A DNA stretch of 55,611 nucleotides from a virus (IMGVR_UViG_2778261256_000006:1-55611), one strand, 5' to 3'; shown: positions 9,231-50,115, counted from the first letter of the stretch. Translations and numbers: made by a program. Notes: a model not told the origin generated them from the letters alone.

Positions 9231-9261
9231 CCTTCTCAAGCCAGTAACCGCAAGCGCTGGA

Positions 9262-9340: not shown

Positions 9341-9421
9341 AATAAGTAAACAGGCATTTGCAAACTCCGGTGCGCCTTATCCGTTATCGTTGCCCCGGAC
9401 AAAATTATTTGAACAAGAATT

Positions 9422-11548: not shown

Positions 11549-11589
11549 GGCAACGTTATTATGGGAGCTTTCGAGATTTTGCCATCGTG

Positions 11590-11781: not shown

Positions 11782-13694
11782 AGTTTTTAAAGCTCCAGGT
11801 TGAAAATTTTATGGCAATCGCCAGCGCAGAAGTCGAGTTAGACCAGCGTGGACTGGTGCTGATCCAGGGTGTGAACAGTGGCGATACGTCTGCTGCCAGC
11901 AATGGCGCCGGGAAATCCACTCTGATGAATAGCTTAATGTGGTGTCTGTATGGTGAGACTGCACATGGCGTCAAAGGCGATGACGTGCTGTCGACGGGCC
12001 ATGAGAAGAACTGCCGTGTGATGGTTACAGTTGAAGACGAAGGTAAGAAATACGCGATCATTCGCCATCGTAAACACAAAGAGTTCAAGAACCGACTAAT
12101 CGTCCGTGGTGAAGACGGTGATATGACCAAAGGCAAGGACACGCTGACACAGACGTTCGTAGAACGTCTGATTGGGGCATCGAAAGAGGTGTTCATGGCG
12201 TCCATCTACGCCAGTCAGGAAGCGATGCCAGATCTGCCCGGTATGTCCGACAAGAGCCTCAAAACCATCGTTGAAGAAGCTGCTGGCGTCGACCGATTGA
12301 CGCGAGCCTATGCCATTGCCCGCGAGCGTGCTAATGCAGCTGCCGCACGTATGGACGTTACCAAATCCAAAATGGACGCCTGTCTCACGCTTATCGAGAC
12401 TGCACAGTCAGAGATTGAGGCGGCCAAAGCGTCCTCTGAAAGCTGGGAGCGCGATCGCGGCGAGCGTCTGGACAAGGCCCGAGCCGATTTGGCTGGCGCG
12501 GAGGTAACACTGTCTGAAGTCGAGATGGAAATTCGCTCGCTGCCGGAACAGATCCGTGATACGGAAAACGCGATTGCTGGCGAACGCAGCAAGCTGGCCT
12601 CCAAAGAAGAGCATGACGCCAAACTGCTGAAGGTGCGCAGTGCTATTACTGAGATCCGCTCAAGCATCCGTACTTCAGAAGCGGCACAGAACGAGTCGAT
12701 AAACCGTGCTCGCTCGTTTAAAACCAAAGCTGAAGAGGTCAGCACAAAGATCGGGGCACCCTGCATTACGTGCGGAAAGCCCTACTGCGAAGAAGATTTA
12801 TCCACGGTGAAGGAGAGCTTCATTGAACAAGCGCGCAATGAGATCGGCCTTGCGCAGACATCAGCAGCGGCAGTGGCTCAACACAAGGCTCGTCTTGAGA
12901 AAGCGCTCGGTATCGAGTCTGCACTGGTCGCAGCCACACCCGACGTCTCAGAAATCATCTCCACAATAGAACGCCTGACCAATGAGCTAAGTGCGCTGCG
13001 TCATCGCGAACGTGAAGTTGTGGCCGTCGAAGCGATGGTTGCGCGGGCGCGTACTGAAGTGAATCGCATCATGGCGGAAGCAAACCCATTTCTGGCCGTT
13101 ATTAAGCGCCATGAAGACAACCTGGCTGCCAATAAATCTAATCATGCAGTACTTAAAAATGAGTTAAAGAGCATTCAGGAACAGGCTCTGTTGCTGGAGA
13201 AGGCCCGCCAGGTTTACTCCCCAGCAGGCGTGCGTTCACACATCCTGACCTCCGTTACGCCTTTCCTGAACATCAGGACTGCGGAGTATCTCAACACGCT
13301 GTCGGACGGCAATATCGTTGCCGAATGGTCGACAATGGAGACAACGAAGAAAGGTGAGTATCGCGACAAATTCAATATCAGCGTAATCAAAACAGGCTCC
13401 AGCAAATCCTTCCAGACTTTGTCTGGTGGTGAGAAGCGTAAGGTACGTATTGCGTGCTCTCTGGCTTTGCAGGATCTGGTTGCCAGTCGCGCCAGTAAGA
13501 ATATCGAGCTATTTATCGGTGATGAAATTGACGACGCGCTCGACACAGCCGGTCTGGAGCGTCTCATGGGGATTCTGGAAGCCAAAGCGCGTGAACGTGG
13601 CACAGTGATGATCATCTCCCACAAAGAGATGAAATCGTGGTTCCGGGAAATTATCACTGTCGAAGTTAAAGAGGGGCGCAGCTATGTCGTTTAA
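11778..13694 (+). CDS. SbcC/Rad50-family ATPase (recombination nuclease ATPase subunit)
   Basis: Walker A (NGAGKST), long coiled-coil, CxxC zinc hook (CITCGKPYC), signature (LSGGEKRKV), Walker B (GDEIDDALD). Confidence 0.85.
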   Translation: MKFLKLQVENFMAIASAEVELDQRGLVLIQGVNSGDTSAASNGAGKSTLMNSLMWCLYGETAHGVKGDDVLSTGHEKNCRVMVTVEDEGKKYAIIRHRKHKEFKNRLIVRGEDGDMTKGKDTLTQTFVERLIGASKEVFMASIYASQEAMPDLPGMSDKSLKTIVEEAAGVDRLTRAYAIARERANAAAARMDVTKSKMDACLTLIETAQSEIEAAKASSESWERDRGERLDKARADLAGAEVTLSEVEMEIRSLPEQIRDTENAIAGERSKLASKEEHDAKLLKVRSAITEIRSSIRTSEAAQNESINRARSFKTKAEEVSTKIGAPCITCGKPYCEEDLSTVKESFIEQARNEIGLAQTSAAAVAQHKARLEKALGIESALVAATPDVSEIISTIERLTNELSALRHREREVVAVEAMVARARTEVNRIMAEANPFLAVIKRHEDNLAANKSNHAVLKNELKSIQEQALLLEKARQVYSPAGVRSHILTSVTPFLNIRTAEYLNTLSDGNIVAEWSTMETTKKGEYRDKFNISVIKTGSSKSFQTLSGGEKRKVRIACSLALQDLVASRASKNIELFIGDEIDDALDTAGLERLMGILEAKARERGTVMIISHKEMKSWFREIITVEVKEGRSYVV

Positions 13695-32566: not shown

Positions 32567-33094
32567 TTAAAACGGTAAAATTCGTTCGACCCAATCGAAC
32601 ATGGCGACTGTCTTCCTACCGTCCCCCATGTTGAGTGTGACCTGACAAGCGTCAACGCCTCTTGACACCCCTTCTATTTCACGACCGTCCGCCATGTAGA
32701 CCCTTATAGACTTCTGCATCTCATGAGCCTGGCGACAAATTTTGAAGAAATCACGGCGAGATGGCCGATTGTCCACATAGTCTGGGTGTACCGTTGTCCG
32801 ACCCGTGAAGTCGTGCGCAATGCCTTCTGTCACACCTGATTCAATCGTGCTGATTCGCTCAAGTGGGAGCCTTATACGATTTTCTTTGTCGAACGGGGCA
32901 GGGCAAAGGTCGACTTTGTTGCGAGACGACATGAGACCCTGAACGTACATGCAGAACACCTGACCATCTTCCATCGTGACCCTTACAGGAATGAGATACT
33001 TACGCCAGAACATCAGCGCCTTCTCCACGTTGGTGTAATCGCGCGGCCAGACTTCTGCAGGAATCCCGTAGGTGATGTCAGTAATATTCGTCAT
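32567..33094 (-). CDS. hypothetical protein with two similar internal segments
   Basis: Last gene of the helicase operon; start may be 33136 or 33094. Confidence 0.45.
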   Translation of the reverse strand: MTNITDITYGIPAEVWPRDYTNVEKALMFWRKYLIPVRVTMEDGQVFCMYVQGLMSSRNKVDLCPAPFDKENRIRLPLERISTIESGVTEGIAHDFTGRTTVHPDYVDNRPSRRDFFKICRQAHEMQKSIRVYMADGREIEGVSRGVDACQVTLNMGDGRKTVAMFDWVERILPF

Positions 33095-33098
33095 ATCG

Positions 33099-33521
33099 TC
33101 ACAGTGTCGTTGGTAAGATATCGATGTCACCAGCATTACTGGTGAACACCCGGAAGACTTTCGTCTCGCCAGCTTTGGTAATCGTCTCGCGTTCCTGACG
33201 AGCAGGATTCAGTGCGCACAGCCCAGCGTCTTCGAGTGAGGCGCCAACAATCCATTCTCCGGCATCCAGATGAAAAGTGACTTTTTCACCTGTTTCCAGT
33301 TTTGCAACGGTTTCGCCATTGATGAAGATCGATGCGTCGCAACCGGCGCCCACCATGCTTTTATCTCTCATAACCACCAGCGTCGATGCCGCCGGAGATT
33401 GGTATTTGAATATTCTGGTCTGCGGTGCTGGCTTTGCCTCAGAGACAGGAATAGGACGAGATTGACATGCAGTGATAAGTAACGCGGAGGCAGCAACCAG
33501 AGGAAGTAATACGTGTTTCAT
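33099..33521 (-). CDS. lipoprotein (signal peptide with lipobox)
   Basis: MKHVLLPLVAASALLITAC: lipobox LITAC. Confidence 0.55.
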   Translation of the reverse strand: MKHVLLPLVAASALLITACQSRPIPVSEAKPAPQTRIFKYQSPAASTLVVMRDKSMVGAGCDASIFINGETVAKLETGEKVTFHLDAGEWIVGASLEDAGLCALNPARQERETITKAGETKVFRVFTSNAGDIDILPTTL

Positions 33522-33580
33522 TGTACCGAACAAAATCCTTATCTTTACGAAAATCATGGCGCCTCAAGGCGCCATAATGC

Positions 33581-33859
33581 TCAATCGAGGCGTTTTAGAA
33601 TATCGGCCAGATCTTCTTTGGTCATACCCGAGTTTTCGTAAATCTTCATGACCTTTTCACGAGCCTTTGCAGTAGTCTCTAATGACGTAGCTATCTTATC
33701 AAAATCACCCATCGTCATATTGGACAGCACCAGATTGATGATGTCTGCCTTTGACAGTTTTATGCTGCGTTCACGCAGTCGATTCTGAAAGGTCTCTAGT
33801 TTATCGTTTGCTTTTTCGGTTAACTTAACCTGGCAGTTAATAGCGCGTTTCTCGCTCAT
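33581..33859 (-). CDS. small hypothetical protein
   Basis: 92-aa ORF immediately downstream of the helicase gene. Confidence 0.45.
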   Translation of the reverse strand: MSEKRAINCQVKLTEKANDKLETFQNRLRERSIKLSKADIINLVLSNMTMGDFDKIATSLETTAKAREKVMKIYENSGMTKEDLADILKRLD

Positions 33860-33861
33860 GC

Positions 33862-35421
33862 TTACTCTCTATCCAAAACAGTGAAATCGAATGTGCTGCC
33901 AACCGGCAAGACCCCCTCGGCAAACCCAGGCGTCGTGTCGATAATGTGTTTCCGCTCATATGAATGCGACATGAGGTATTTGTTGCTCACGTCGATGAAG
34001 TCGGTAATAAAGCACACGTTAGCCTGATTTTTCTTGGCTCGTAAGCCACGACCGACACGCTGTCTCATTTCAACTTCTGCTTTCCCGCCACCACCCAGAA
34101 TCACCGCGCCTACGCTTGGAACGTCGACACCAACATCCAGAATGGTTGAACCAATGAGAACATCTATCTTGCCTGCCGCCAGACTATTAAGTTTTGCTTG
34201 TCGGGTAGTCTGGTTTGATTCTCCGTAGATGAAATCGACCTTGAGGCCACTCTCTTTCATCATTTCCATCAAGATCTGACCATGACGCCTCAGACGAACC
34301 AATGTCATACAGTTCAGACCGTGACTCTTGTACATTAGCGCTTCACGCACAATAGCTTCGTTGCGGCCCAGATTATAGACGATGCCTAACTGATAGGCTT
34401 TCTGGTAAGCCGTGCTCATTCCAACCCTAAAATTCAGGTGTTTTGAAGCAAGTTCGGCTCTAATCCGCGTCTCATCTGGAGTGTACGCGATTTTATGATA
34501 TAAAAAGTATGGTTTCGCTAAAATACCTCTGTCGATCAAATATTTCTCCGTTACTTTTATCTCGATGCGACCCGCAACGGCCATGAGACGCATATTTGCT
34601 TCAGTCGAGTCCTTCATGAACGGCGTAGCTGTCAGCGCCAGACGGTAGTCGGCATTGGTACACAACCGGGCTATATCGTAGAAGTTTGAGCCGGATGATT
34701 CGTGCGCTTCTTCCAGAATCAGCAGAGAAACGCTGGACAGGAAGCGCTTAACCAATTCCCGGCGTTTCAGGTGATACTGTTTTTTCTCTGGAGATGCGTC
34801 GCGCGACGGCTCTTCGAGAAAACTAGCAAGGGTCTGAACCGTGGCAACGTTGATATGGCGCGATACCTGAAACTCACCAGATCCAATCACCCCAACTTTC
34901 TGACCTTTCAGCCACGGCTCGCCATTCTTCGCGCGGTAGTCGATGGATTTCTGGAAGTTCTCTGCCATCTGGAACATCAGAACCGAGCGCGTGGTTAAAA
35001 ACAGCGTCATACGACCAATGCGAGCTGCTGCCTTACACGCTACGTTCGATTTACCGCCACCCGTCGCAATCTGGGCAATCATCATCCCTTCGCGCACCAG
35101 TGTTTCCACTGTCTGATCCTGATACGCGTAGTCCGGGTTATACGGGAATGGATTAACCACCGGATTCGGCTTACCCAGCGCGGGAGCTTTTTCCTTGCGA
35201 ACATGCACGCATTTGATGCCAGCTTTCAGAAGATTGGTCGCAACTGGCTTCGCAAACCCAGCCGGGAACGCGTTTTTACTCCAGTTGAACATCGTGCTGG
35301 TCCCTTTCCAGTCACCAGCCTCCACTTCATAGCTCAACATCTCCTGAACAAGCCGTTTCACGTTGTCATCAGCGCCAGAAATCAGCGCATTGACTGCATT
35401 TGATACAATCCGAACAGTCAT
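33862..35421 (-). CDS. DEAD/DEAH-box superfamily 2 helicase
   Basis: Walker A (ATGGGKS), DExH (LILEEAHES), motif III (LTATP), motif VI (QRVGRGLR). Confidence 0.8.
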   Translation of the reverse strand: MTVRIVSNAVNALISGADDNVKRLVQEMLSYEVEAGDWKGTSTMFNWSKNAFPAGFAKPVATNLLKAGIKCVHVRKEKAPALGKPNPVVNPFPYNPDYAYQDQTVETLVREGMMIAQIATGGGKSNVACKAAARIGRMTLFLTTRSVLMFQMAENFQKSIDYRAKNGEPWLKGQKVGVIGSGEFQVSRHINVATVQTLASFLEEPSRDASPEKKQYHLKRRELVKRFLSSVSLLILEEAHESSGSNFYDIARLCTNADYRLALTATPFMKDSTEANMRLMAVAGRIEIKVTEKYLIDRGILAKPYFLYHKIAYTPDETRIRAELASKHLNFRVGMSTAYQKAYQLGIVYNLGRNEAIVREALMYKSHGLNCMTLVRLRRHGQILMEMMKESGLKVDFIYGESNQTTRQAKLNSLAAGKIDVLIGSTILDVGVDVPSVGAVILGGGGKAEVEMRQRVGRGLRAKKNQANVCFITDFIDVSNKYLMSHSYERKHIIDTTPGFAEGVLPVGSTFDFTVLDRE

Positions 35422-35485
35422 AAACCTCTTTCCTTCGTGCCTTTTGTATGGTAATTGGCTATTATGTTAAGTAAGTACTTACACA

Positions 35486-36184
35486 ATGGATTGTATCAAA
35501 AATATGGATGTGAAAATTACGATTCTACAGGTGGAAGTCGCGAACCTGCGTCCGAACCCCTGGAATACCAACTCCGTTGGGGCGCAAAACTTCGAAAAAC
35601 TGAAAGGTTCCATCGAAAAGTTGGGCTTTTTTAAGCCAATTCTGGCGCGAGAGCTGGACGGCGGCATTTTTGAGATTCTCGGTGGCGAACATCGCTGGCG
35701 TGCCGCGATGGAGCAGGGCATTTCAACGGTTCCCGTAATGTCGGTGGGAAAAATTAACGACCTGGTGGCCAAACAGATGTCTCTCGTCGATAACGAGCGC
35801 TACGGCGAAGACGATCAGATCGCTTTGCAACGCTTAATCGAAGAAATTCAGTCTGAAATTGACTACCGGTTGTCTGATATCGCCCCGTATGACGACGAAA
35901 TGGCGGCAACGCTCGCCAAAGCATCCGTTATCGATCTTGAAGCGCTGGAAGCGCTCTCCCGCGGCGATGACGAGCCGGTCGGTGAGGACAAACGCGAGAA
36001 AATCGAGCGAGTCGGTGCTGAACACCAGACGATGCGCTTCAAGGTGACGTTCGATGCGTCAGATCGCGTCGCCGATACCATCAAAACCATCATCAAAGAG
36101 CAGGGAATCAATACCGGTAACGAAATGGAGAACGCCGGGGAAGCCTTGGTGTGGCTGGTCGACTACTACAAGGAGCGTATGTAA
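35486..36184 (+). CDS. ParB/Srx-type N-terminal domain protein (ParB-like nuclease domain) 1
   Basis: ParB box-II-like motif (ILGGEHRWRAA); 232 aa. Confidence 0.65.
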   Translation: MDCIKNMDVKITILQVEVANLRPNPWNTNSVGAQNFEKLKGSIEKLGFFKPILARELDGGIFEILGGEHRWRAAMEQGISTVPVMSVGKINDLVAKQMSLVDNERYGEDDQIALQRLIEEIQSEIDYRLSDIAPYDDEMAATLAKASVIDLEALEALSRGDDEPVGEDKREKIERVGAEHQTMRFKVTFDASDRVADTIKTIIKEQGINTGNEMENAGEALVWLVDYYKERM

Positions 36185-36852
36185 TGACCAAGAACTTTGA
36201 AATCGTATATCGAAACCCGGCAGAACTTATCCCGTATGAGATGAACGCCAAAAAACATGACGAACAGCAGATCCACGACCTGGCGGCTGCCATCAAAAAG
36301 CGCGGTTTTGACCAGCCGATCACGGTCGACAAGCACGACGTCATCATTACTGGTCACGGTCGTCGCGAGGCGGCACTTCTGGCTGGTCTGGAGCGTGTGC
36401 CTGTCATCGTTCGCGACGATCTGAGCGAAGAAGAAGTGAAGGCGAAGCGTCTTGAAGACAACCGCCTGGCCAGTATTGACTACGACGCCATCAAATTGCA
36501 GCAGGAACTGGAGTCCCTGGTGCTGGGTGACGTTGAGGTCTTTGGTTTTGAAGAGCGAGAGCTGAACGTGCTTGTTGGCAGCATGACCGAAGAGATGGAA
36601 ACAGGCTCTCTGGTGCTCGATCTGGGTGAAGAGACGGAACGCCAGAAAGAAGAGCACACCGAGATCAGTCGCGAAGTGGCCTCTGAAGAAGTCCGAGTCA
36701 TCGACGTATTGGGCTTTAAAACGCTCCCTGCTGGCTCTGCCATTGTGGTTGGGGATTTGCTTGCCCACATGGAAGAAATTACGGGAGAAAGCGGGGTAGA
36801 CGCTTTCGTGGCGTATGCGGAGAAAGTTTCCTCTGGGGAGCTGGCTGCATGA
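36185..36852 (+). CDS. ParB/Srx-type N-terminal domain protein 2
   Basis: ParB box-II-like motif (IITGHGRREAA); acidic C-terminal half. Confidence 0.6.
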
Positions 36853-37487
36853 GCAAATACACCATCAACGTATCGTTTCAGACCCGCGTGAACAAAACCA
36901 CGCGCACGCTGGAGATTGCCGAATCGTTCGGTCTTGGCCTGGACGAAAAAGAGTGGACGCTTTACGACAATCTGGAGCTGGAAGTGAAGCAGGGCGATGT
37001 GGTGTACATCACCGGCCAATCCGGTTCCGGTAAATCCGTTGTGCTGCGCGAGCTGCAACGCCAGATGAAGGATGAAGGGCTTTCTGTAGCCTCCATCGAT
37101 GACTTTGCCTTCGACAATGAGGTTAACGTCATTGACCAGCTGGGCAAAACCACCAGCGAAGCGCTGGGGCTGCTGTCTATGGCCGGATTGAATGACGCCT
37201 ATCTCTTTGTGCGTAAGCCATCCGAGATGTCTGACGGCCAGAAATACCGTCTCAAGATCGCCAAGCTGATCGAGTCCGGCGCGAAAGTCTGGGCTGCCGA
37301 CGAATTTGGCGCTGTTCTCGACCGTGTAACCGCCCAGGTTGTGGCGTCGAACCTCCAGCGTGCCGCCCGTAAGGTTGGTGCGACGGTAATGGTGGCGACG
37401 ACCCACGAAGACCTGAAGAACGCGCTGCGCCCGGATATGCAGATCACCAAGCACTACAAAGAACGCGTGAAGGTGGAATATGCCTGA
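36849..37487 (+). CDS. minimal ABC-type ATPase
   Basis: Walker A (GQSGSGKS), signature-like (SDGQKYR), Walker B (VWAADEFG), H-loop-like (TTHE); 212 aa. Confidence 0.65.
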   Translation: MSKYTINVSFQTRVNKTTRTLEIAESFGLGLDEKEWTLYDNLELEVKQGDVVYITGQSGSGKSVVLRELQRQMKDEGLSVASIDDFAFDNEVNVIDQLGKTTSEALGLLSMAGLNDAYLFVRKPSEMSDGQKYRLKIAKLIESGAKVWAADEFGAVLDRVTAQVVASNLQRAARKVGATVMVATTHEDLKNALRPDMQITKHYKERVKVEYA

Positions 37488-37734
37488 TTTGAAGATCGTA
37501 GAGCTGAAGCCATCGAAAGAGGCTGACAACAACAACGTTGAAGTCATCCGCCTGCTGGAAGAAGCACTCCAGTACGCCAGAGAAGGCAAAAGCCAGAGCC
37601 TGGCACTGCTGATGATCAACAACGACGGCAGTGTGCTGGATTGCTGGCATAACGGTGGGCGTCCATACGTCATGGTTGGGGCGATGGAATCGCTTCGCCT
37701 GGACTTCATCAATGCCAATATCGAGCGTAGGTGA
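37480..37734 (+). CDS. small hypothetical protein
   Basis: 84-aa ORF overlapping both neighbours. Confidence 0.4.
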   Translation: MPDLKIVELKPSKEADNNNVEVIRLLEEALQYAREGKSQSLALLMINNDGSVLDCWHNGGRPYVMVGAMESLRLDFINANIERR

Positions 37735-38630
37735 TCGACATGACAGGCATCATCATCAAACGCTACCGCCCGGAAGAGTTCCCGCGTCATCTGGACTTTC
37801 TGGAGCGTATGACCGTTACCAAAGGCACGGTTGAAGACTGGCACGCGCTGAAGTCGCTGCACTACAAGACGGATGGTAAGCCGTTTGCGCCAACGTATTA
37901 TCGCTGCGAACTGGACGACCGGCTGGTGGGCGTCGTGGTTATGGCTTACCCGAAACTGCTGCTGGCGCCTCGCCATCGCATGTTTCCTAAGCTGAAGCCA
38001 ACCACCAATACCACCGTGGCCAACCAGTATTGGGGGCGGTACGTGAACAACAACTTTGCGGTGATCAGCCGTTCCGTTGTGGACACTCAGTACCGCGGTG
38101 TCGGCGTCTCCTATCGAATGATTAACCTGGTTAGCAGGATGCACGACCGGCCAATCATCGAGATCCAGTCGTCGATGAGCAAATACAACCCGTTCGCCAT
38201 GAAAGCAGGGTTCCAGTTCATCCGTCCGGAGCGTCCGAAGAGCTATGAGAGTGCGTTGCGCGTCTTCCAGCGTCATTTCCGTTCCGACCCTGGCGACAAC
38301 GAAGCGATCGTCAAAGAGCTGTTTGCCATGAGTGAGTCTCGCCGTCGTCGTGCGCTGCGTGATCTGGTCGCTGACTACCACAAGAACAGTTCCCTGGCCA
38401 AAGCCGGGCGTAATCGTGGCACGACGATTCAGGACATTGCCGACAGCCTGGTGGACGAGGCCAGCATCGTGAAGCTGCTCAAGGACATTCACAACCTGAG
38501 CTTCACGTCTCCGCTGTATGGCGTGTACCGAAACCCGGACTTTGGTCGTCAGCTGCCGGACACGCTGCCACTGCTGGCATTCGACAAACAGCCTTTGAAT
38601 AAACCTCTTGAAATTGCATTACCGGCATAA
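37731..38630 (+). CDS. GNAT-like acyltransferase-fold protein (tentative)
   Basis: Motif-A-like segment (VVDTQYRGVGVSYRMINLV) typical of GNAT acetyl-CoA binding; 299 aa. Confidence 0.45.
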   Translation: MIDMTGIIIKRYRPEEFPRHLDFLERMTVTKGTVEDWHALKSLHYKTDGKPFAPTYYRCELDDRLVGVVVMAYPKLLLAPRHRMFPKLKPTTNTTVANQYWGRYVNNNFAVISRSVVDTQYRGVGVSYRMINLVSRMHDRPIIEIQSSMSKYNPFAMKAGFQFIRPERPKSYESALRVFQRHFRSDPGDNEAIVKELFAMSESRRRRALRDLVADYHKNSSLAKAGRNRGTTIQDIADSLVDEASIVKLLKDIHNLSFTSPLYGVYRNPDFGRQLPDTLPLLAFDKQPLNKPLEIALPA

Positions 38631-38639
38631 GGATTTGCC

Positions 38640-38906
38640 ATGACGTTGACCGACAAACAAAAAGACATCATCAAAACCATCAATTTAGGCCATGAGCGTG
38701 GGCATCTGCTCGATCTGGACGAGCTGCTTGAAGTGCTGCCGTACAAAACGACCAAACAGAGTATGCAGTTCTCTATCCGCGCACTGGTGAAAAAGGGGCT
38801 GGTGGAGAAAGGAATGTGCCGCCAGCGCGGTGATTCCGGCTACCACCGTCGCACGCTGGGACTGACCACTTTAGGTCGTGCCAGAGCCAAATTACTGGTG
38901 ATGTAA
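38640..38906 (+). CDS. small probable winged-helix DNA-binding protein
   Basis: 88 aa; basic C-terminus (RRTLGLTTLGRARAKL). Confidence 0.4.
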   Translation: MTLTDKQKDIIKTINLGHERGHLLDLDELLEVLPYKTTKQSMQFSIRALVKKGLVEKGMCRQRGDSGYHRRTLGLTTLGRARAKLLVM

Positions 38907-38928
38907 GTCGGTCTGGGAGCCAGTTTGA

Positions 38929-38989
38929 GAGCCTGCTTCCGTATATATAAATACTAAGTGACTTATTAAATATATACGGAAGCAGGCTC
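38929..38989. repeat. 61-bp palindromic element (19-bp arms), copy A of a two-copy repeat
   Basis: GAGCCTGCTTCCGTATATA..TATATACGGAAGCAGGCTC; about 85% identical to the element at 51046-51100. Confidence 0.6.
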
Positions 38990-39020
38990 TGAATACTCCC
39001 CAGCCCGGTTTTAAACACCC

Positions 39021-39064
39021 AGAAAACAAATTGGTTAGGCACTGAATTAAACAAGTTGTTTAGG
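39021..39064. promoter_or_regulatory. tandem pair of operator-like palindromes upstream of terS
   Basis: AGAAAACAAATTGGTTAGG and TAAACAAGTTGTTTAGG. Confidence 0.5.
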
Positions 39065-39101
39065 AGCGCAAGGATGCGCTCTGAGTGTTTTAGAGGGATC
39101 T

Positions 39102-39743
39102 ATGACTATAGAAAAAGACGAGAGCAAAACTCGCCTGACACCAGCTGAGTGGGCAGAAGCCGAAGCGAAGTGGACTTCCGGCGAATACACACTCTCCAAG
39201 CTGGAGGAAGAGTACGGCATTCGTCGTGAAACGCTCTCCAGACATTTCAAAAAGCGTGGATTAGAGAAAGGCGCGGACTCCGTTGGGAAGATGGTGCGCG
39301 AGTCGCTCAAATCCGACGCAGAGCTGCGTGCGAAGGCGCGTGCAGAGAAAATCGAAGAGCGCCGGACTCGTTACGACGATTGGGCGTTCGCACTCGGTCG
39401 TATGGTGATGCATGAGGTGGCCATAGCCAAGAAGGACGGCAGGCCACTGGCAGCCATCGAAGATGACCTGAAGAGTCTCCAGCGTGCCAGCGGCACACTC
39501 GCTAAGTGCTTCGAAATATCGTCGAAAGCGCTCGGTATGGATCGCGTGGAGAACGAGGACGACGAAATCCCGAACCTGGTATTTGGCGAACTTACGCCTT
39601 CCCAGGTGGCGCAGCTGCGTAAGGAAGATGATGAGCCGGATCTGATTGATGACGATCTGCTTGAGTCACTCGAAGAGGAAGCACTGAGCGAAGCTGAGGG
39701 CGATTCTGAAGCGTCTGGTGATGAAAGTGATGGGAGCGTCTGA
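39102..39743 (+). CDS. Terminase small subunit (TerS)-like
   Basis: 213 aa, N-terminal helix-turn-helix-like region, highly acidic C-terminus; immediately precedes TerL. Confidence 0.6.
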   Translation: MTIEKDESKTRLTPAEWAEAEAKWTSGEYTLSKLEEEYGIRRETLSRHFKKRGLEKGADSVGKMVRESLKSDAELRAKARAEKIEERRTRYDDWAFALGRMVMHEVAIAKKDGRPLAAIEDDLKSLQRASGTLAKCFEISSKALGMDRVENEDDEIPNLVFGELTPSQVAQLRKEDDEPDLIDDDLLESLEEEALSEAEGDSEASGDESDGSV

Positions 39744-39745
39744 CT

Positions 39746-40999
39746 ATGACCATCCCGTCGTCTCTGAGTCTCGTACAGCTGCATTCTGGGCAGATGCAAG
39801 TCTTCCAGTCGCCACATCGTTTCAAAGTGGTGTGTGCGGGTCGACGCTGGGGTAAATCCCGGTTGTCGATCTCCACCATCATCCGCGCGGCAGCCAAAGA
39901 GAAGAAGCAACGTGTCTGGTATGTCGCACCGACTTACCAGATGGCTCGCCAGATCTTGTGGGATGACCTGCAGGAAGTTCTGCCGCGCAAATGGGTTCGT
40001 AAGAAAAACGACACCACGATGACCATCGTGCTGAAGAACGGCTCTGAAATCGCGCTGAAAGGTGCGGATAAGCCCGATACGCTTCGTGGTGTGGCACTGC
40101 ACTTTGTGGTGCTCGATGAATTTCAGGATATGAAGCCTGACACCTGGTACAAGGTACTGCGTCCGACACTGTCCTCCACCCGTGGCGGTGCGCTGATCAT
40201 CGGTACGCCAAAAGGCTTCTCCGAGTTCCACAAGCTGTGGACTATCGGTCAGAACAAAGATTTGCAACGCAAGGGGCAGTGGAAGAGCTGGCAGTTCGTT
40301 ACGGCCGATTCTCCGTTCGTACCGAGCGCGGAAATCGAAGCAGCGAAGAACGATATGGACCCTAAATCGTTCGCACAGGAATACCTGGCCAGCTTCGAAA
40401 ACATGTCCGGACGCGTTTACTACCCGTTCGACCGCAATGTGCATGTGAAGCCACTCCAGTTCAATCCGAAACTGCCGATCTGGGTTGGTCAGGACTTCAA
40501 CATCGACCCTATGTCATCGGTCATCCTGCAACCGCAGCCAAATGGTGAACTGTGGGCTGTGGACGAATTGGTGTTGTTCTCTTCTAACACGGCTGAAGTG
40601 TGTGACGAGCTGGAGCGTCGATACTGGCGCTGGAAATCTCAGGTCACTATCTTTCCTGACCCGGCAGGTGCGTATCGCCAGCACGCACGCGGCGAATCTG
40701 ACGTCGACATCTTCAAAGAGAAAGGTTTCCTTCGAGTCGATTATCCGAAGAAGCACCCGCCGATCGCAGACCGTGTTAACGCAGTGAACCGCATGTTGAT
40801 GAGTGCCTCGGGCGAAACCCGGTTGTACATCGATCCGAAGTGCAAACACCTCATCGACTCGCTGGAGAAGGTGATCTACAAGCCAGGCTCACGCGATATG
40901 GATAAGACTGGCGGCATCGAACACAGTGCGGATGCGTTGGGTTATCCAGCGTGCATCGTCGCTGGGGACTGCGTGGGCGCCTTGGGCATCTGGAAGTAG
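39746..40999 (+). CDS. Terminase large subunit (TerL)
   Basis: Walker A (VCAGRRWGKS), Walker B (HFVVLDEFQD), C-terminal RNaseH-like nuclease region. Confidence 0.85.
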   Translation: MTIPSSLSLVQLHSGQMQVFQSPHRFKVVCAGRRWGKSRLSISTIIRAAAKEKKQRVWYVAPTYQMARQILWDDLQEVLPRKWVRKKNDTTMTIVLKNGSEIALKGADKPDTLRGVALHFVVLDEFQDMKPDTWYKVLRPTLSSTRGGALIIGTPKGFSEFHKLWTIGQNKDLQRKGQWKSWQFVTADSPFVPSAEIEAAKNDMDPKSFAQEYLASFENMSGRVYYPFDRNVHVKPLQFNPKLPIWVGQDFNIDPMSSVILQPQPNGELWAVDELVLFSSNTAEVCDELERRYWRWKSQVTIFPDPAGAYRQHARGESDVDIFKEKGFLRVDYPKKHPPIADRVNAVNRMLMSASGETRLYIDPKCKHLIDSLEKVIYKPGSRDMDKTGGIEHSADALGYPACIVAGDCVGALGIWK

Positions 41000-41009
41000 G
41001 GGCAAACAT

Positions 41010-41483
41010 ATGGGTCTGAAGTACGACGCGCATCAGTTTAAGCGTGCTGGCGACAGGCTCAATAACAGCCAGAAAGCCTTTAAGCGTTATCTCATTCGTG
41101 ACATGGAGAAGCTGGCGCGTCTGGTTGAGCGTCTGGCGCGGGCAATGGCTCCGCTGGAGACTGGCTCACTCGAAAGCGCGATTTTCGCGAGAGTTGTCAA
41201 AGAGGGCTATACGGGGCTGCGTATTGAGTTATCGGTGTCTGGGGCTAAACCGCGCGAAGGGAACCCTGGTGTTGAGGTTGGTGATTATGCGGAGTACATG
41301 GAGTTGGGCAAGTATCGTCTCGGCTATCTCTCCCGCATGAAGAGCGTCACCAACCCGCCAGTTGCTGGTGTGAAGCCACGCGTTGGGCCTTTGTTCCTTG
41401 AAAGAGCGGCACAGGTCAGTGAGAAACAGTTCGCTCAGACGATAGCTGAAGCAGCAAGGAAAGCAGGTTTTACGAGAAGTTGA
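41010..41483 (+). CDS. virion morphogenesis protein (HK97 gp10-like; tentative)
   Basis: 158 aa; position and composition resemble head-tail joining proteins; motif-level support is weak. Confidence 0.4.
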   Translation: MGLKYDAHQFKRAGDRLNNSQKAFKRYLIRDMEKLARLVERLARAMAPLETGSLESAIFARVVKEGYTGLRIELSVSGAKPREGNPGVEVGDYAEYMELGKYRLGYLSRMKSVTNPPVAGVKPRVGPLFLERAAQVSEKQFAQTIAEAARKAGFTRS

Positions 41484-41484
41484 T

Positions 41485-41868
41485 GTGTTTATTGAAGCAT
41501 TTGCGAGCCTGATGCAGAAGGCGAAGATCGGCACACTCGGCACTGACATTTTCTGTCACTACATGCCAGCCAATGTGAAGTCCGGCGTCCTGTTGGTTAC
41601 TCCCAATACGGGGATCGCCATTGACCATGAGTTAAAAGGCTTTTATCACGACTCTTTTACCGTCATCGTGCGTAATGCGACGATCACAAAGGCGGTGGCG
41701 AAAGCCAATAAGATCATGGACATGTTTCCCGTCGAGGAAACCGTGTCAGATGGCGTTTACTTCCGGTTGGTACGACCAATGTCGATGCCGATAACTTATC
41801 CAAAAAACGAAGGCTCGTTGATTGAAGCGGGCATCCCGATTGAATTTGCGGGCTATTTGTTGAATTAA
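41485..41868 (+). CDS. tail terminator-like protein (tentative)
   Basis: 127-aa ORF immediately upstream of the major tail gene. Confidence 0.4.
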   Translation: MFIEAFASLMQKAKIGTLGTDIFCHYMPANVKSGVLLVTPNTGIAIDHELKGFYHDSFTVIVRNATITKAVAKANKIMDMFPVEETVSDGVYFRLVRPMSMPITYPKNEGSLIEAGIPIEFAGYLLN

Positions 41869-41942
41869 CAAAATAAGTAAGTATATACTTACTATTGGCG
41901 CCATGAAGGTGCTGATTTAACGGAAAAAGGAGTTTTCCAACA

Positions 41943-42689
41943 ATGTCCAATACCCATGTAAAAAACATCAAACTTGGCGCCTGCAAAGTGTCGTTTGGTG
42001 GTGTTGATCTGGGTTACACCAAAGGCGGTGTTCAGGTTGAGGTTGCGACCGAAACTCTGAAAGTTACCGTAGACCAGCTAGGGCAAACCACCATCTCCGA
42101 GCTGGTACAGGGCCGTAACATCACTATCACTGCGCCGCTGGCCGAGTCTGTGTTGCAGAATATGGTCGATCTGATGCCGGGTTCTACCCTGAGTGAAGAA
42201 GATAACTCTGTGACCATCACTTCCGCACAGGGCGTCAATCTGATCGACGTAGCTAAAGAGCTGGTTCTGACCCCGCAGGATACCACCGACTACGTTCTGA
42301 CCATCCCGAAAGCTGCGACCGCAGGTAACTTCACTATGACCTACCAGTCTGATGATGTTCGCGTGTTCTCGGTTCAGTTCACCGCTTACCCGGATGACGA
42401 CGGTATTCTGGGGAAAATGAGCGGCCCAAAGCCGGTTAAATCCGTCTCTATCTCTCCGGATTCTCCGGAAGTTAAAGCCGGTGAGAGCGTGCAGCTGGCA
42501 GCCCAGATCACACCTGCAGATGCCGGCGACAAAACCGGTGTGTGGGAGTCCGACAATCAGGAGAAGGCTACCGTTGATCAGACTGGTCTGGTTCGCGGAG
42601 TAGCTGAAGGTTCGGCAAATATCTCCTTCACCAGCAATAGCGGCGGCAAGAAAGCGACCAAAGCTGTAACGGTTAATTCTGCCGAATAA
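41943..42689 (+). CDS. Major tail protein with C-terminal Ig-like (Big_2-type) domain
   Basis: 248 aa; C-terminal about 80 aa Ig-like (VKSVSISPDSPEVKAGESVQLAAQITPADA..TVN); followed by a terminator and the G/GT chaperone genes. Confidence 0.7.
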   Translation: MSNTHVKNIKLGACKVSFGGVDLGYTKGGVQVEVATETLKVTVDQLGQTTISELVQGRNITITAPLAESVLQNMVDLMPGSTLSEEDNSVTITSAQGVNLIDVAKELVLTPQDTTDYVLTIPKAATAGNFTMTYQSDDVRVFSVQFTAYPDDDGILGKMSGPKPVKSVSISPDSPEVKAGESVQLAAQITPADAGDKTGVWESDNQEKATVDQTGLVRGVAEGSANISFTSNSGGKKATKAVTVNSAE

Positions 42690-42705
42690 TCGTGACGTGA
42701 CTAAG

Positions 42706-42734
42706 CAGAGGCTCAGGAAGAGCCTCTCTTTTAA
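42706..42734 (+). terminator. terminator/attenuator after the major tail gene
   Basis: GAGAGGCTC-AGGAAG-AGCCTCTC followed by TTTTAAAA. Confidence 0.6.
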
Positions 42735-42748
42735 AAGGATTTTAACCA

Positions 42749-43066
42749 ATGACCAAATTACTCGATCTCGACTCCATTCTACCTCCGAAGAAAAGTATCA
42801 AGTTCGGCGGTCAGGAATACCCCATCGTTGAAATGACAGTTGGTCTGTTCGTCTCCATCAAGCAGATGGAAGGCAAAGATCTTCAGAACATGTCTCCTGT
42901 AGAGCAGGTTACTGCTTACGCCGACCTGGTTCGCAAGGTCATCCCATCCGTGCCGGACGCTGTACTGGAAAAACTGACTGTTCCGCAGCTTCAGCAAATC
43001 TTCACCTTCGCTATGGAAGTGATTGATGAAGAGAACGAAAAAGCGGCTGGTGAAGGGGCAAAGTAA
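42749..43066 (+). CDS. Tail assembly chaperone (gpG-like)
   Basis: 105 aa, acidic C-terminus; directly upstream of an overlapping -1 frame ORF and the tape measure gene. Confidence 0.65.
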   Translation: MTKLLDLDSILPPKKSIKFGGQEYPIVEMTVGLFVSIKQMEGKDLQNMSPVEQVTAYADLVRKVIPSVPDAVLEKLTVPQLQQIFTFAMEVIDEENEKAAGEGAK

Positions 43067-43146
43067 TTTCCCGCGATGAATCCGGGGTAAAGACCGTATC
43101 GATAGATCTCGGATTCTATTTCAGTCGTGTAGTTGCTCACTACGCC

Positions 43147-43416
43147 GTGTCGCCATTAGAGCTGCTGGGCGTCCCTCTAACGATGTTCTGGATGCTCAGT
43201 CGCAACATCGACCGTCTACGTGCGGAAGAGGATGTCCGCAACCTGCAAGTCGCTCGCGCTGCCCAGGCAGATGGCGAGGGCGTGAAGGCGTTCATGGAGG
43301 GTTTGCAACTCAGGATTGGAAGACCAGTCGTAACCGATAAAGTCTACGATCCGCGCAAGGATAAGGCAGACCCTGACGCCAAAGAGCAACTGATGCAAAT
43401 TTTTGGCAGAGGATGA
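43147..43416 (+). CDS. Tail assembly chaperone extension (gpT-like), probably expressed as a G-T fusion by -1 frameshift
   Basis: -1 frame is open from 43054 and overlaps the last codons of the gpG-like gene; lacks its own RBS. Confidence 0.5.
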
Positions 43417-49057: not shown

Positions 49058-49090
49058 TACGACAATAATTCACGCAAAGGAAACTCACCA

Positions 49091-49756
49091 ATGACCAAGA
49101 TCATTGTGGTTGGCGGCACAAAAGGCGGCCCAGGCAAATCTACCGTTGCCCAGCAAATTGCGGTATGTCTCAAAGTTAAAAAGAAAAAGAAGGTTCACGT
49201 CACCGATATCGATATCCAGCGCACCACGACCAGCTGGTGTGAAGACCGTCGCCAGAACGAAGATCTTGAACTGATCCCGTTCGCTTATGTGCAGGACGAC
49301 ATCGTCAAACATCTTAAATCGCTTCAGGGGCGAACTGATTATGTAGTGGTAGATGCTGGTGGCTTTGACTCCGAAATTCAGCGTCTGGCGATGCTTATGG
49401 CTGATGTAATCATCATCCCGCTGCGCCCTAAACGTCGTGATTTGAAATCTCTGCGTGATATCGACCCGATTATCGACAACGTTCGCAATGTGAACGAGAA
49501 AGTTAAGATCCGCGCGGTAATAAACCAGTGTCCGTCATTGCCTTCCCAGGTATCACGTATTCTGGCCGCGAAGGAAATTGTCGAAACTTTCGGCATCGAG
49601 GCTGCGCCGGTCAATCTGTACAACCGTAACGTTTATGACGATGCAGAAGAGGCTGGACGTTCTATCTTTGAAATGTCAGGCGCTGAACGCGATAAGAAAG
49701 CAGAAGCCGAATTTGGAGAGTTAGTAGATTACATCTTGAGTCTGGAGGAAGAATAA
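49091..49756 (+). CDS. parA: ParA-family partition ATPase
   Basis: Deviant Walker A (GGTKGGPGKST); 221 aa; followed by an overlapping small DNA-binding protein gene. Confidence 0.85.
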   Translation: MTKIIVVGGTKGGPGKSTVAQQIAVCLKVKKKKKVHVTDIDIQRTTTSWCEDRRQNEDLELIPFAYVQDDIVKHLKSLQGRTDYVVVDAGGFDSEIQRLAMLMADVIIIPLRPKRRDLKSLRDIDPIIDNVRNVNEKVKIRAVINQCPSLPSQVSRILAAKEIVETFGIEAAPVNLYNRNVYDDAEEAGRSIFEMSGAERDKKAEAEFGELVDYILSLEEE

Positions 49757-50115
49757 TGTCCATGAGAATGGGAGACCTTGCAAAGCGCAATGAGCCTAAA
49801 GAACCGGCCAAAAGCAGCACTCCACTGCGCCAGCCAGTCAGACCGCAGGGGCGTCCGACTCGTGGCAAAGAGAAGATTAAAAGCCGCACAATGTCGCTGG
49901 AAGACGAGTACTTCGAACTGTTGGAGATGATGAAGTTTATCCCTCGTTTTGAGAAGTTCACCCGTTCTGATGTGATTCGTGCAGCCATTTTCCATCTGGC
50001 AGAGAAGTCACCGCAGGAAATCGAAGACATCGTGAAACTGAACGAGGCGATCACTGCTGCCGACGTCACGATGCGTACCGACGAAATCAAACGAGAGTTG
50101 ATGAAGAAAGGTTAA
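49756..50115 (+). CDS. small partition protein (ParG/ParB-like centromere-binding protein)
   Basis: 119 aa, basic N-terminal tail; start overlaps the parA stop (TAATG). Confidence 0.6.
   Translation: MSMRMGDLAKRNEPKEPAKSSTPLRQPVRPQGRPTRGKEKIKSRTMSLEDEYFELLEMMKFIPRFEKFTRSDVIRAAIFHLAEKSPQEIEDIVKLNEAITAADVTMRTDEIKRELMKKG

Follow-up and report, generated by a model that had tools for sequence, protein, structure and literature searches.

An operon of two ParB-like proteins, an ATPase and a GNAT-fold protein precedes the terminase genes

The window (the whole stretch of DNA that was analysed, 55,611 nucleotides) belongs to an SSU5-like phage-plasmid with 97.5% identity to Salmonella phage SSU5, and matches were found in 783 plasmid records. 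A six-gene operon had been predicted at 35486-38906 from the sequence alone. The operon proved to be real: six co-oriented, tightly coupled ORFs on the + strand were found exactly there, the motifs quoted in the original prediction were all present in their translations, and the genes co-occurred across genomes. The genes and the features flanking them are as follows.

33862..35421, - strand: DEAD/ResIII superfamily-2 helicase (Pfam DEAD, ResIII and Helicase_C; phrog_16), divergent left neighbour (context)
35486..36184, + strand: ParB1 (ParB_N; phrog_723)
36184..36852, + strand: ParB2 (ParB_N; phrog_930; phrog_498)
36849..37487, + strand: minimal ABC-type ATPase, 212 aa (ABC_tran)
37480..37734, + strand: 84-aa protein (phrog_796)
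37731..38630, + strand: GNAT-fold acyltransferase, 299 aa (GNAT fold at residues about 20-165)
38640..38906, + strand: 88-aa basic protein, putative winged-helix (phrog_900)
38925..38993, unstranded: inverted repeat, 24-nt arms and 21-nt loop
39063..39082, + strand: terminator-like hairpin with T-run, 20 nt upstream of the TerS start
39102..39743, + strand: probable TerS (phrog_867), invariant right neighbour (context)
39746..40999, + strand: TerL (Terminase_6N; context)

Successive genes of the operon overlap by 1, 4, 8 and 4 nt, and the last is reached after a 9-nt gap. All the proteins matched populated PHROG families with E-values of 1e-47 to 1e-166, placing the assignments of the operon proteins far beyond chance. 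An antisense ORF (36480-38492), previously judged to be non-coding, is present in the window. It was kept in neither of two relatives, the longest stop-free antisense run being 133 aa in a Klebsiella phage (85% identical) and 230 aa in Cyrano, which supports the non-coding call.

Five of the six genes form a conserved core, encoding two paralogous ParB/Srx proteins, the minimal ABC ATPase, the GNAT-fold protein and the small basic protein. To this extent the predicted composition stood, whereas the sixth member, the 84-aa gene, turned out to be the occupant of a variable slot and lies outside the core: it is missing from Cyrano, and a 183-aa gene takes its place in Klebsiella phage ST13-OXA48phi12.3. 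Insertion slots of relatives held ORFs that were judged by eye to be DUF2829-like, thioredoxin-like, membrane (holin-like) and HNH-like, of which database annotation backed DUF2829 only (in RHEph10).

The two ParB-like proteins lack a recognizable helix-turn-helix

Both ParB-like proteins passed the Pfam gathering threshold for ParB_N (51.5 bits for ParB1 and 35.8 bits for ParB2; cut-off 26.3 bits). ParB1 (phrog_723, E 1e-84; pI 4.6) has an acidic linker that joins a ParB/Srx domain at the N-terminus to a small domain at the C-terminus, and its nearest solved relatives were Spo0J, ParB and Noc. Its version of the GERRxRA box reads GEHRWRA in the window; H69 was the sole invariant position of this box across five lineages, and the CTP-box arginines varied across lineages. 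In ParB2 (phrog_930, E 9e-115), the box GHGRRxAA was invariant (alignment A4). Residues 28-182 of ParB2 matched phrog_498, ‘DNA methyltransferase’ (E 9e-33), and the protein also matched the N-terminus of PADLOC MTase_II (E 6e-18). Comparison of the two proteins by hhalign gave 98% over 196 columns, identifying ParB2, at the level of sequence, as a paralogue of ParB1. The longest ParB2 ORF begins at GTG 36151; the likelier start is ATG 36184, which overlaps the ParB1 stop by 1 nt and agrees with the annotated starts in Cyrano and the Klebsiella phage.

Among Pfam and NCBIfam families, no helix-turn-helix (HTH) was detected in ParB1 or ParB2, their scores against the TIGR00180 and Noc models were far under the cut-offs, and the ParB1 segment that aligned with the Spo0J HTH is acidic. 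No ParA is encoded within the operon. A ParA-type gene (49091-49756) with a deviant Walker A, read by eye as GGTKGGPGKST, and a gene for a 119-aa partner (49756-50115) lie 10 kb away.

The ABC ATPase and the GNAT protein retain catalytic and cofactor motifs

The ATPase scored 50.3 bits against ABC_tran (cut-off 25). In an alignment of five lineages of type A, the bacterial lineage (A2; 54-96% identity), the Walker A motif, Q97, SDGQ, Walker B D151-E152, the D-loop and H186 were invariant, as were R19, E22 and AE.FGLGL, an N-terminal signature specific to the family. The Walker B Glu was missing from the two ParB-fused forms in a wider alignment (A6). Judged by these motifs, the ATPase in the window looks active. 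The ATPase of one relative (P0167) holds an intein with a LAGLIDADG endonuclease after residue 148, a position read, by comparison with related sequences, as at or just beyond the Walker B region; inteins are concentrated in important DNA-metabolism proteins. No membrane partner or permease was found among the five core genes. An ABC transporter would need a cognate transmembrane subunit; the partner of the ATPase here is the GNAT protein, to which it is fused in hundreds of relatives.

The 299-aa protein had been called GNAT-like, and a GNAT fold was indeed found. The protein consists of a GNAT domain (residues about 20-165) and a helical C-terminal domain (166-299), with a pI of 9.8. The acetyl-CoA loop Q120-Y-R122-G123-V-G125 fits the pattern R/Q-x-x-G-x-G/A; across 41 homologues, R122 and G125 were invariant, G123 was the majority residue and an NPF.EK.G motif was conserved, while fused archaeal and viral forms carried a matching loop (YRGIG or FRGxG). 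The match to Acetyltransf_10 reached 13.5 bits, below the Pfam gathering threshold of 23.6, and some fused relatives reached Acetyltransf_1. Polyamine and arylalkylamine acetyltransferases were the top Foldseek matches, with TmcA and NAT10 also among the top. The C-terminal domain gave no significant structural match and had no recognizable nucleic-acid-binding fold. From its sequence features, the protein looks active and nucleic-acid friendly. The 88-aa protein (phrog_900, E 5e-49; pI 10.1), the last conserved core gene product and encoded in every type A locus, weakly matched the wHTH tail of a CARF protein (E 3e-4) and is probably a winged-helix DNA binder.

The module is conserved in bacterial viruses, and its enzyme pair in archaeal viruses

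The order of a divergent helicase, ParB, ParB, ABC, GNAT, small protein, TerS, TerL and portal was invariant in ~110-kb siphoviruses of Pseudomonas, Rhizobium and Stenotrophomonas and at 26 metagenomic or genomic loci; the Xanthomonas JGB6 locus was frameshifted. Identity of the GNAT protein was ~41%. The helicase was adjacent and divergent in each type A locus with enough flank, and the terminase genes were adjacent in all type A loci (26/26). Conservation of the ParB-ParB-ATPase-GNAT order, which the original prediction had left to a gene-neighbourhood analysis, was seen in these siphoviruses and at the 26 loci. The operon is a conserved, uncharacterized module of SSU5-like phage-plasmids.

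A profile search of 1.84 billion representatives retrieved 1009 relatives. Many are 450-500 aa long, with the ATPase N-terminal and the GNAT C-terminal. The GNAT profile matched the C-terminal halves of proteins of 450-500 aa or longer, and each of the ten that were scanned had a Pfam ABC_tran domain N-terminal of the GNAT match. The ATPase halves of P0157 and P0190 share 46-48% identity with the ATPase in the window, and phrog_11143 covers both halves. Archaeal tailed proviruses (Bathyarchaeota, Nitrososphaeria and Aigarchaeota) encode ATPase and GNAT in one polypeptide. At 51 of 60 informative archaeal genome loci (GTDB), and at 33 of 48 from IMG/VR, TerL was encoded on the same strand no more than 1.5 kb away; at one locus (L099) the TerL stop overlaps the ABC-GNAT start, and in some archaeal proviruses (L238) the gene lies between the major capsid protein (MCP) and tail genes.

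Two further kinds of fusion were rarer than plain ABC-GNAT. A ParB-like domain, ABC and GNAT share a single ORF in L227 (ParB HMM E 1e-9) and, with a zinc ribbon, in P0222 and P0191; two DNA methyltransferase genes flank P0222. A 1260-aa protein fuses a family B DNA polymerase (PolB) to ABC-GNAT, and the virus that encodes it has PrimPol and RecA as well; this fusion was read on 24 contigs, and the index lists 35 blocks. For most archaeal fusions, no ParB-like gene was detected in the flanks that were fetched (up to 7-8 kb), and ParB is therefore not obligatory for the enzyme. Beyond what had been predicted, these data identify the ABC ATPase and the GNAT protein as one ancient unit, seen in COG2401-type fusions and linked to TerL in archaeal and bacterial tailed viruses.

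A repeat and a hairpin lie between the operon and the terminase genes

The inverted repeat at 38925..38993 (DNA fold -25.7 kcal/mol, z -10.4) separates the operon from TerS. It is kept in the Klebsiella phage, a comparable repeat with 34-nt arms occupies the equivalent place in Rhizobium phage RHEph10, and the linear SSU5 and Cyrano records stop where its loop ends. The repeat could mark the boundary of the operon, bind a protein or serve in packaging. The terminator-like hairpin downstream is also kept in the Klebsiella phage. The product of 39102..39743 is probably the small terminase subunit, to judge from its phrog_867 match (E 1e-105), its HTH-like N-terminal segment and its position immediately upstream of TerL at each type A locus; it is acidic (pI 4.6). 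In the window, the 3' end of TerL abuts neck and tail genes, an apparent deletion of ~6 kb by junction analysis. Profile searches for packaging families (TerS, TerL, HNH accessory and portal) gave no match above noise for the six operon proteins.

The module differs from the systems it resembles

The combination had not been recognized as a described system, a view that held: the literature search found no paper on the module, and no defence, transporter or partition signatures were found in it. Homologues and the 299-aa protein itself carry the database label COG2401/MK0520, ‘ABC-type ATPase fused to a predicted acetyltransferase domain’, for which no described function was found in the literature. 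Fused relatives show exactly this architecture, whereas in the window the two domains are encoded apart, an insertion slot lying between their genes.

The genes for phage ParB-DNA methyltransferase fusions commonly lie just upstream of terminase genes. The N-terminal ParB domain of such fusions (phrog_498; PADLOC MTase_II PDLC03229) aligns with ParB2, whose own N-terminal domain has its closest likeness there; unlike these fusions, the module has no methyltransferase domain and a separate GNAT with its own ATPase. By analogy, the GNAT protein would occupy the place of the methyltransferase. An experimental precedent comes from phage ParB-like proteins that have no DNA-binding domain: 5mYOX, a thymine dioxygenase that modifies DNA after replication, requires them as activators on dsDNA (PNAS 2026, PMC13229309). 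In that system, the cognate ParB has an NTP-binding-type N-terminal domain and a C-terminal domain without HTH, a reduction shared by ParB1 and ParB2, and its gene adjoins that of the DNA-modifying enzyme, often near terminases; in 19% of contigs, ParB-dioxygenase clusters were found together with terminases (PMC13229309). That system, however, has an Fe/2OG dioxygenase and one ParB, compared with a GNAT, an ABC ATPase and two ParB paralogues in the window, where the DNA activity is putative.

Among acyltransferases, the GNAT fold is common to the 299-aa protein and Mom of phage Mu (PDB 8bv8), an acyl-modifying enzyme of DNA adenine. Mom is expressed late, modifies phage DNA before packaging and evades restriction, but acts without an ATPase or ParB partner. 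No Mom-specific relationship was seen at sequence level, Mom being no closer than generic GNATs. TmcA and NAT10, ATP-dependent RNA cytidine N4-acetyltransferases, likewise couple an NTPase to a GNAT acting on a nucleic-acid base; they have a helicase-like ATPase, an RNA substrate and a tRNA-binding domain, in contrast to the ABC ATPase and unmatched C-terminal domain encoded here. Eco1/ESCO acetylates the ABC-type head of SMC3 during replication, and bacterial ParB loads SMC complexes. This pairing of a GNAT-related enzyme with an ABC-type ATPase on DNA and the replisome is an analogy only, as the ATPase in the window has no coiled coil and is homologous to SMC3 at superfamily level only.

A ParB-assisted acyltransferase acting on viral DNA is the favoured reading

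We tentatively favour a late-expressed, ParB-assisted, ATP-dependent acyltransferase that would act on viral DNA before or during packaging. This reading builds on domain identities, intact catalytic and cofactor motifs, invariant synteny, three fusion types and the linkage to TerL. The fusion partners and neighbours (ParB-like, PolB and TerL) are DNA-handling proteins, and DNA is the one obvious substrate common to them. An ancient obligate pair would be formed by the ABC ATPase, which probably works as a dimer driven by ATP, and the GNAT protein, which probably uses acetyl-CoA or another acyl-CoA. The two HTH-less ParB/Srx paralogues would be a heteromeric activator or clamp that engages this pair on double-stranded DNA, with the small basic protein serving in DNA contact or regulation. 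As the operon opens the late packaging block, right before TerS-TerL, the module is expected to act on replicated viral DNA just before or during packaging. Its most likely action would be transfer of an acyl group to bases, giving a Mom-like outcome by a different route, so that virion DNA would carry its mark, and the protection it gives, into the next host. What we infer from these observations is that the proteins form a physical complex, which acyl donor is used, that DNA is the acceptor and that the purpose is protective.

Several points weaken the case for DNA acylation. The top Foldseek matches are polyamine and arylalkylamine acetyltransferases, the C-terminal domain gave no recognizable nucleic-acid-binding fold, the CTP-box arginines of ParB1 vary, and ParB is not obligatory in the archaeal fusions. 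Genes for anti-restriction modification usually occur sporadically, in contrast to the invariant core set seen here, and the MCP-tail position in some archaeal proviruses (L238) suits a protein of morphogenesis or of the virion no less well. The literature searched gave no modification of SSU5-type DNA, and we know of none.

The main rival, which we hold to be rather unlikely, is a protein target in the packaging or head-assembly machinery: the enzyme would acetylate TerL, TerS, portal or capsid proteins, or nucleoid proteins that have to be stripped before packaging. The ATPase would link acetylation to the packaging complex, while the ParBs would tether the enzyme to DNA. The late-module position throughout the lineages (ahead of TerS-TerL in type A, directly beside TerL in most archaeal proviruses, MCP-tail in L238) and the overlapping TerL stop and ABC-GNAT start in L099 would suit such a role, but a fusion to a replicative DNA polymerase and methyltransferase neighbours are hard to fit with head assembly. 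A target common to bacterial and archaeal viruses would also have to be viral, and no co-varying partner was found; to our knowledge, there is no link between known terminases and acetylation. The same place among structural genes would suit a virion-delivered or immediately acting counter-defence effector, with a logic like that of P1 DarB. Its proteins would enter the heads along with the DNA and, in the next host, modify incoming DNA in cis or acetylate a host defence protein. Deployment in the capsid has been suggested for GNATs encoded with late structural genes (PMC5512222), and moron-like small ORFs occur in the relatives' operons (DUF2829-like, annotated in RHEph10; thioredoxin-like by eye). 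This is nevertheless improbable, given that the five core genes are invariant over a divergence that leaves the GNAT protein ~41% identical, unlike typical counter-defence genes, and have no meaningful match to known defence or anti-defence profiles (PADLOC).

The chances of a phage-plasmid-borne defence or superinfection-exclusion system serving the host are slight. Several defence systems contain ABC ATPases and ParB-like proteins, and the ATPase weakly matched mad3, mad8 and PtuA; these matches, however, span generic P-loop regions only, the core has no nuclease or other effector, and the module occurs in lytically isolated phages (the nickie group and Stenotrophomonas phages), fixed within the packaging block and not in a variable island. 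In PADLOC-DB v2, only P-loop-level and MTase_II ParB-domain matches were noted, with none for the GNAT or 84-aa proteins. The defence or anti-defence role offered in the original prediction is thus disfavoured, there being no meaningful PADLOC match and the genes being the invariant core of a deep viral lineage. Just as doubtful is a tRNA or rRNA acetyltransferase functionally analogous to TmcA/NAT10. The structural matches to those enzymes, the shared ATPase-plus-GNAT logic and the tRNA genes, including tRNA-Met, just past the helicase in nickie-type phages speak for it; against it, the ATPase is of the ABC class and not helicase-like, the links with ParB, PolB and TerL suggest DNA, the sole tRNA prediction in the window is doubtful and 10 kb off, and no match was seen between the C-terminal domain and the tRNA-binding domain of TmcA. 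A second plasmid-partition or maintenance system is close to refuted, even though it would account for two ParB-family proteins, of which ParB1 has chromosomal ParB, Spo0J and Noc as its nearest relatives by sequence. As had been supposed, the pair is very unlikely to be the segregation ParB: it has no detectable HTH, no neighbouring ParA and, in ParB1, no conserved CTP-box arginines, a separate ParA cassette lies at 49091-50115, and the module is kept in non-plasmid phages and, as GNAT fusions, in archaeal proviruses.

DNA modification and a packaging accessory, the two remaining roles put forward at the outset, are both compatible with the findings. The module may be a novel means of marking viral DNA chemically or of handling it.

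Organization of the operon and its surroundings

All six plus-strand ORFs of the original prediction were found in place, and each motif quoted for them was seen. The features of the window considered here are listed below.

33581-33859 (-), 92-aa ORF (phrog_1466)
35486-38906 (+), operon encoding ParB1, ParB2, a 212-aa ABC ATPase, an 84-aa protein, a 299-aa GNAT protein, and an 88-aa protein
38925-38993, inverted repeat between the operon and TerS
39102-39743, probable TerS
39746-40999, TerL
40943-40959, junction of the TerL 3′ end with neck/tail genes
49079-49159 (-), predicted tRNA-Lys(UUU)
49091-49756, ParA-like ORF

The operon genes were tightly coupled, with overlaps of 1, 4, 8, and 4 nt and a single 9-nt gap. 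As judged from the sequence and from the annotation of relatives, ParB2 probably starts at the ATG at 36184 rather than at the upstream GTG at 36151. In operon order, the genes fell into PHROG families 723, 930, 293, 796, 886, and 900, all of which are well populated. The six co-oriented genes are thus real, but only five of them form a core (ParB1, ParB2, ABC ATPase, GNAT, and the 88-aa protein), with the 84-aa gene being a variable insert that had no counterpart in Escherichia phage Cyrano and was substituted in a Klebsiella phage; insertion slots in relatives held other small genes.

The window represents an SSU5-type phage-plasmid, and its 3.4-kb operon region was 97.5% identical to Salmonella phage SSU5 and 84 to 86% identical to Cyrano and several Klebsiella phages, and it matched 783 plasmid records from Klebsiella, Escherichia, Enterobacter, Yersinia, Salmonella, and others. 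The 670-aa ORF antisense to the operon, already judged non-coding, was rejected as a gene since close relatives do not conserve a long antisense ORF, and we therefore regard it as a by-product of composition. A sigma-70 promoter scan of positions 35000 to 39800 returned zero sites (2.6 expected), and an Rfam scan of positions 33000 to 40000 returned hairpin-like noise only. The 92-aa ORF, directly downstream of the helicase gene, recurred in this position in the records of Cyrano, Klebsiella phage, and Stenotrophomonas phages and weakly resembled a transcriptional repressor PHROG. The tRNA-Lys(UUU), called by ARAGORN, overlaps the start of the ParA-like ORF and may be a false positive.

The inverted repeat had 24-nt arms, an AT-rich top, and a 21-nt loop, and was very stable (-25.7 kcal/mol, z -10.4). 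It was conserved in a Klebsiella phage, and Rhizobium phage RHEph10 had a comparable repeat in the corresponding position. For SSU5 and Cyrano, the linear GenBank records stop at the final loop base of this inverted repeat; it may mark the physical end of the genome or a site for packaging, or the stop may be no more than a deposition convention. The ends of the Nican01 record were discarded as a guide to the long DTR relative to the operon, since that record was merely re-started at TerL. Compared to Cyrano and other SSU5-type elements, approximately 6 kb was missing from the window, from portal through major capsid protein, and the TerL 3′ end joined neck/tail genes directly (context 39746-43400), with a 17-nt stretch common to both flanks. 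This junction was spanned by none of 250 matching plasmid records, and the element is either a phage-plasmid that is defective or a product of mis-assembly.

The five core genes keep their order next to the terminase genes

In tblastn searches, the GNAT protein matched, at about 41% identity, siphoviruses of about 110 kb from Pseudomonas (nickie group), Rhizobium (RHEph10 group), Stenotrophomonas, and Xanthomonas. Phages of the first three hosts shared one order, with a divergent helicase gene followed by ParB-ParB-ABC-(variable)-GNAT-small protein-TerS-like-TerL-portal, and Xanthomonas JGB6 had the identical layout with fragmented genes. Neighborhoods were then counted by HMM scan of 160 fetched loci, using simple ORF calling and small HMMs from our own alignments; the loci of each scan were the 80 most similar to the first query sequence and not a random sample. 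The order above (type A) was seen in 20 of 20 type A IMG/VR loci and in six bacterial genome loci, including Halomonas, Ectothiorhodospira, Magnetospirillum, and Parasutterella. The question of whether the ParB-ParB-ATPase-GNAT order is conserved, posed with the original prediction, could thus be answered positively for the bacterial-lineage loci examined. Since the order was kept in all of them, the five genes constitute the fixed core of a deep viral lineage, which includes phages isolated through lytic growth. Such a fixed core is not how plasmid-partition genes or sporadic defense genes behave.

The ParB1/ParB2, ParB2/ABC, and ABC/GNAT gaps were insertion hot spots (loci L167, L110, L122, L137, L142, L147, L154, L136, and L141), and the five core genes kept their order despite the inserts. 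By eye, the inserted ORFs were DUF2829-like, thioredoxin-like, small-membrane (holin-like), HNH-like, and lysozyme-like, with annotation support for DUF2829 only (RHEph10).

Proteins of the module

ParB1 and ParB2 each had an N-terminal ParB/Srx domain exceeding the Pfam threshold, were both acidic (pI 4.6), and were paralogues across nearly their full length (hhalign, 98%). No HTH was detectable in either protein using Pfam, NCBIfam, or comparison with solved relatives. ParB1 was most like Spo0J, ParB, and Noc, and its CTP-box arginines were unconserved among orthologues; ParB2, in which GHGRRxAA was invariant, was most like the ParB domain of phage ParB-methyltransferase fusions. The 212-aa protein is a complete soluble ABC ATPase, with all catalytic motifs invariant across five type A lineages (54 to 96% identity) and a family-specific N-terminal signature, R..E.AE.FGLGL. 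The 299-aa GNAT protein was basic (pI 9.8) and kept the acetyl-CoA loop, with R122 and G125 invariant; its helical C-terminal domain matched nothing, and a profile of the GNAT alignment found nothing among PDB sequences at E values up to 10. The 88-aa protein, which was basic and conserved, is probably a winged helix, judging from its sequence. All matches in an NCBIfam scan of the operon proteins were to generic ABC and ParB domains, far under the curated cut-offs, and current annotation of the module genes is limited to "ParB-like," "ABC transporter," and "hypothetical."

ATPase and GNAT form one unit that travels with TerL in archaeal proviruses

When 1.84 billion representative proteins were searched by profile, 1009 relatives of the GNAT protein were returned, many of which were 450 to 500 aa long with the GNAT domain beginning near residue 200 to 230. 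Pfam placed an ABC ATPase in the N-terminal half of these long relatives, and the window ATPase was 46 to 48% identical to the fused ATPase halves, N-terminal signature included. ATPase and GNAT thus represent one ancient functional unit that was split in the bacterial lineage. This fused architecture (ABC-GNAT), known to annotators as COG2401/MK0520, was abundant among genomes of Bathyarchaeota, Nitrososphaeria, and Aigarchaeota, with several copies often found in one genome, and it sat in tailed proviruses that also encoded an integrase, a tail tube protein, and a TerL of the Terminase_6N type. Among the best 80 loci per scan, a same-strand TerL within 1.5 kb of ABC-GNAT was present in 51 of the 60 genome loci that were informative; for IMG/VR loci, with the less sensitive type A TerL model, the count was 33 of 48. 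At one locus (L099), the TerL stop overlapped the ABC-GNAT start, and at another (L238) the ABC-GNAT gene lay between an HK97-type capsid gene and tail genes. Single archaeal genomes carried up to five separate TerL and ABC-GNAT loci (L171-L250; e.g., Bathyarchaeota A05DMB-2, with L209 and L228-L231), implying that such a genome holds several related tailed proviruses or remnants of proviruses.

Rare fusions were also found. A single ORF at locus L227 encoded a ParB-like domain, ABC, and GNAT (ParB HMM E value of 1e-9), and the homologues P0222 and P0191 had a ParB-like domain, zinc ribbon, ABC, and GNAT, with DNA methyltransferase genes flanking P0222 on both sides. In P0222 and P0191, the Walker B catalytic glutamate was replaced (D-R and D-N), and these ATPases may, from their sequences, bind ATP with poor hydrolysis. 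In P0190 (L007-L009, gene 8001-11783), a single 1260-aa ORF joined a family B DNA polymerase (PolB), with exonuclease and polymerase domains, to ABC-GNAT; 24 contigs were read for this protein, for which the index lists 35 blocks. The contig was virus-like, encoding PrimPol, RecA/Rad51, 5′-3′ exonuclease, and RNA ligase, as well as an SMC_N-type ATPase, a peptide deformylase, and an M50 peptidase. The fused homologue P0167 (847 aa) carried an intein (Hint) with a LAGLIDADG homing endonuclease in its ATPase after residue 148, which, by our reading of related sequences, would be at or just after the Walker B region. A further homologue, P0154 (665 aa), had a C-terminal TFIIB cyclin-like repeat, which points to an archaeal origin and possibly to a transcription-factor link.

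Possible functions of the module

The analysis directly shows the identity of the domains, the integrity of their motifs, the conserved gene order, the fusions, and the linkage to terminase. ParB, PolB, TerL, and DNA methyltransferases are the partners that recur by fusion or adjacency. DNA is the only obvious substrate common to these, which favors a DNA-acting role. According to a 2026 study, a post-replicative DNA thymine dioxygenase needs phage ParB-like proteins without a DNA-binding domain as activators for its action on dsDNA, and ParB-dioxygenase clusters frequently adjoin terminases (PMC13229309). ParB1 and ParB2 share the reduced architecture of these activators. On these grounds, we tentatively propose that the module is a late-expressed acyltransferase, in which ParB1 and ParB2 would assist ATP-dependent acyl transfer to viral DNA after its replication and either before or during its packaging. 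The outcome would be protection similar to that given by Mom. The complex, acyl donor, DNA acceptor, and biological purpose are, like all functional statements here, what we infer from sequence, predicted structure, and gene context. A wider proposal, which we consider doubtful, is that ABC-GNAT represents an unrecognized class of ATP-dependent DNA acyltransferases, coinherited with terminase in bacterial and archaeal tailed viruses and assisted in bacteria by HTH-less ParB paralogues, that would acyl-mark genomes at packaging, e.g., by N-acetylated cytosine or adenine. That the module performs a new DNA-modification chemistry is likewise less probable than not, but a serious possibility.

Acetylation of proteins within the packaging or head-assembly machinery would agree with the late-module position and with the fact that most GNATs act on proteins, but it is weakened by the PolB fusions, and we consider it unlikely. 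A counter-defense effector delivered in the virion seems improbable, and TmcA-like RNA acetylation very improbable. We give equally little credence to defense or superinfection exclusion; a PADLOC scan of the operon found no defense system. A transporter was rejected for want of a permease and because the ATPase is partnered by a GNAT. Partition, finally, has next to no credibility and was rejected because the ParB-like pair has no HTH and no adjacent ParA and the module also occurs in non-plasmid phages, in line with the original view that these are probably not the segregation ParB.

The module is common: besides SSU5-type phage-plasmids of Escherichia, Klebsiella, Salmonella, Enterobacter, and Yersinia, siphoviruses from the environment and Bathyarchaeota, Nitrososphaeria, and Aigarchaeota proviruses carry it. 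As a locus it is not new, its genes being present, generically annotated, in many public records. The combination had not been recognized as a described system, and our search of the accessible literature likewise found no description of module function or of the ABC-GNAT/terminase linkage, although an earlier mention may exist. In our classification, it is a phage module of the ParB-assisted DNA-modification type that uses a new enzyme. If DNA is modified, acyl-transfer chemistry, with ATPase and ParB cofactors, would join the few post-replicative phage DNA modifications, and the activation of DNA-modifying enzymes by ParB-fold proteins, a role shown only recently, would be extended. The passage of these clinically relevant phage-plasmids through restriction barriers, and the behavior of their DNA when sequenced or cloned, could also be affected. 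The wider DNA-acyltransferase class, if true, would amount to a natural DNA modification of a new kind, with dedicated loading machinery. If proteins of the packaging machine are the target, the module would be a new, widely conserved packaging cofactor. To our knowledge, COG2401 has until now been without a testable context, and either way it gains one.
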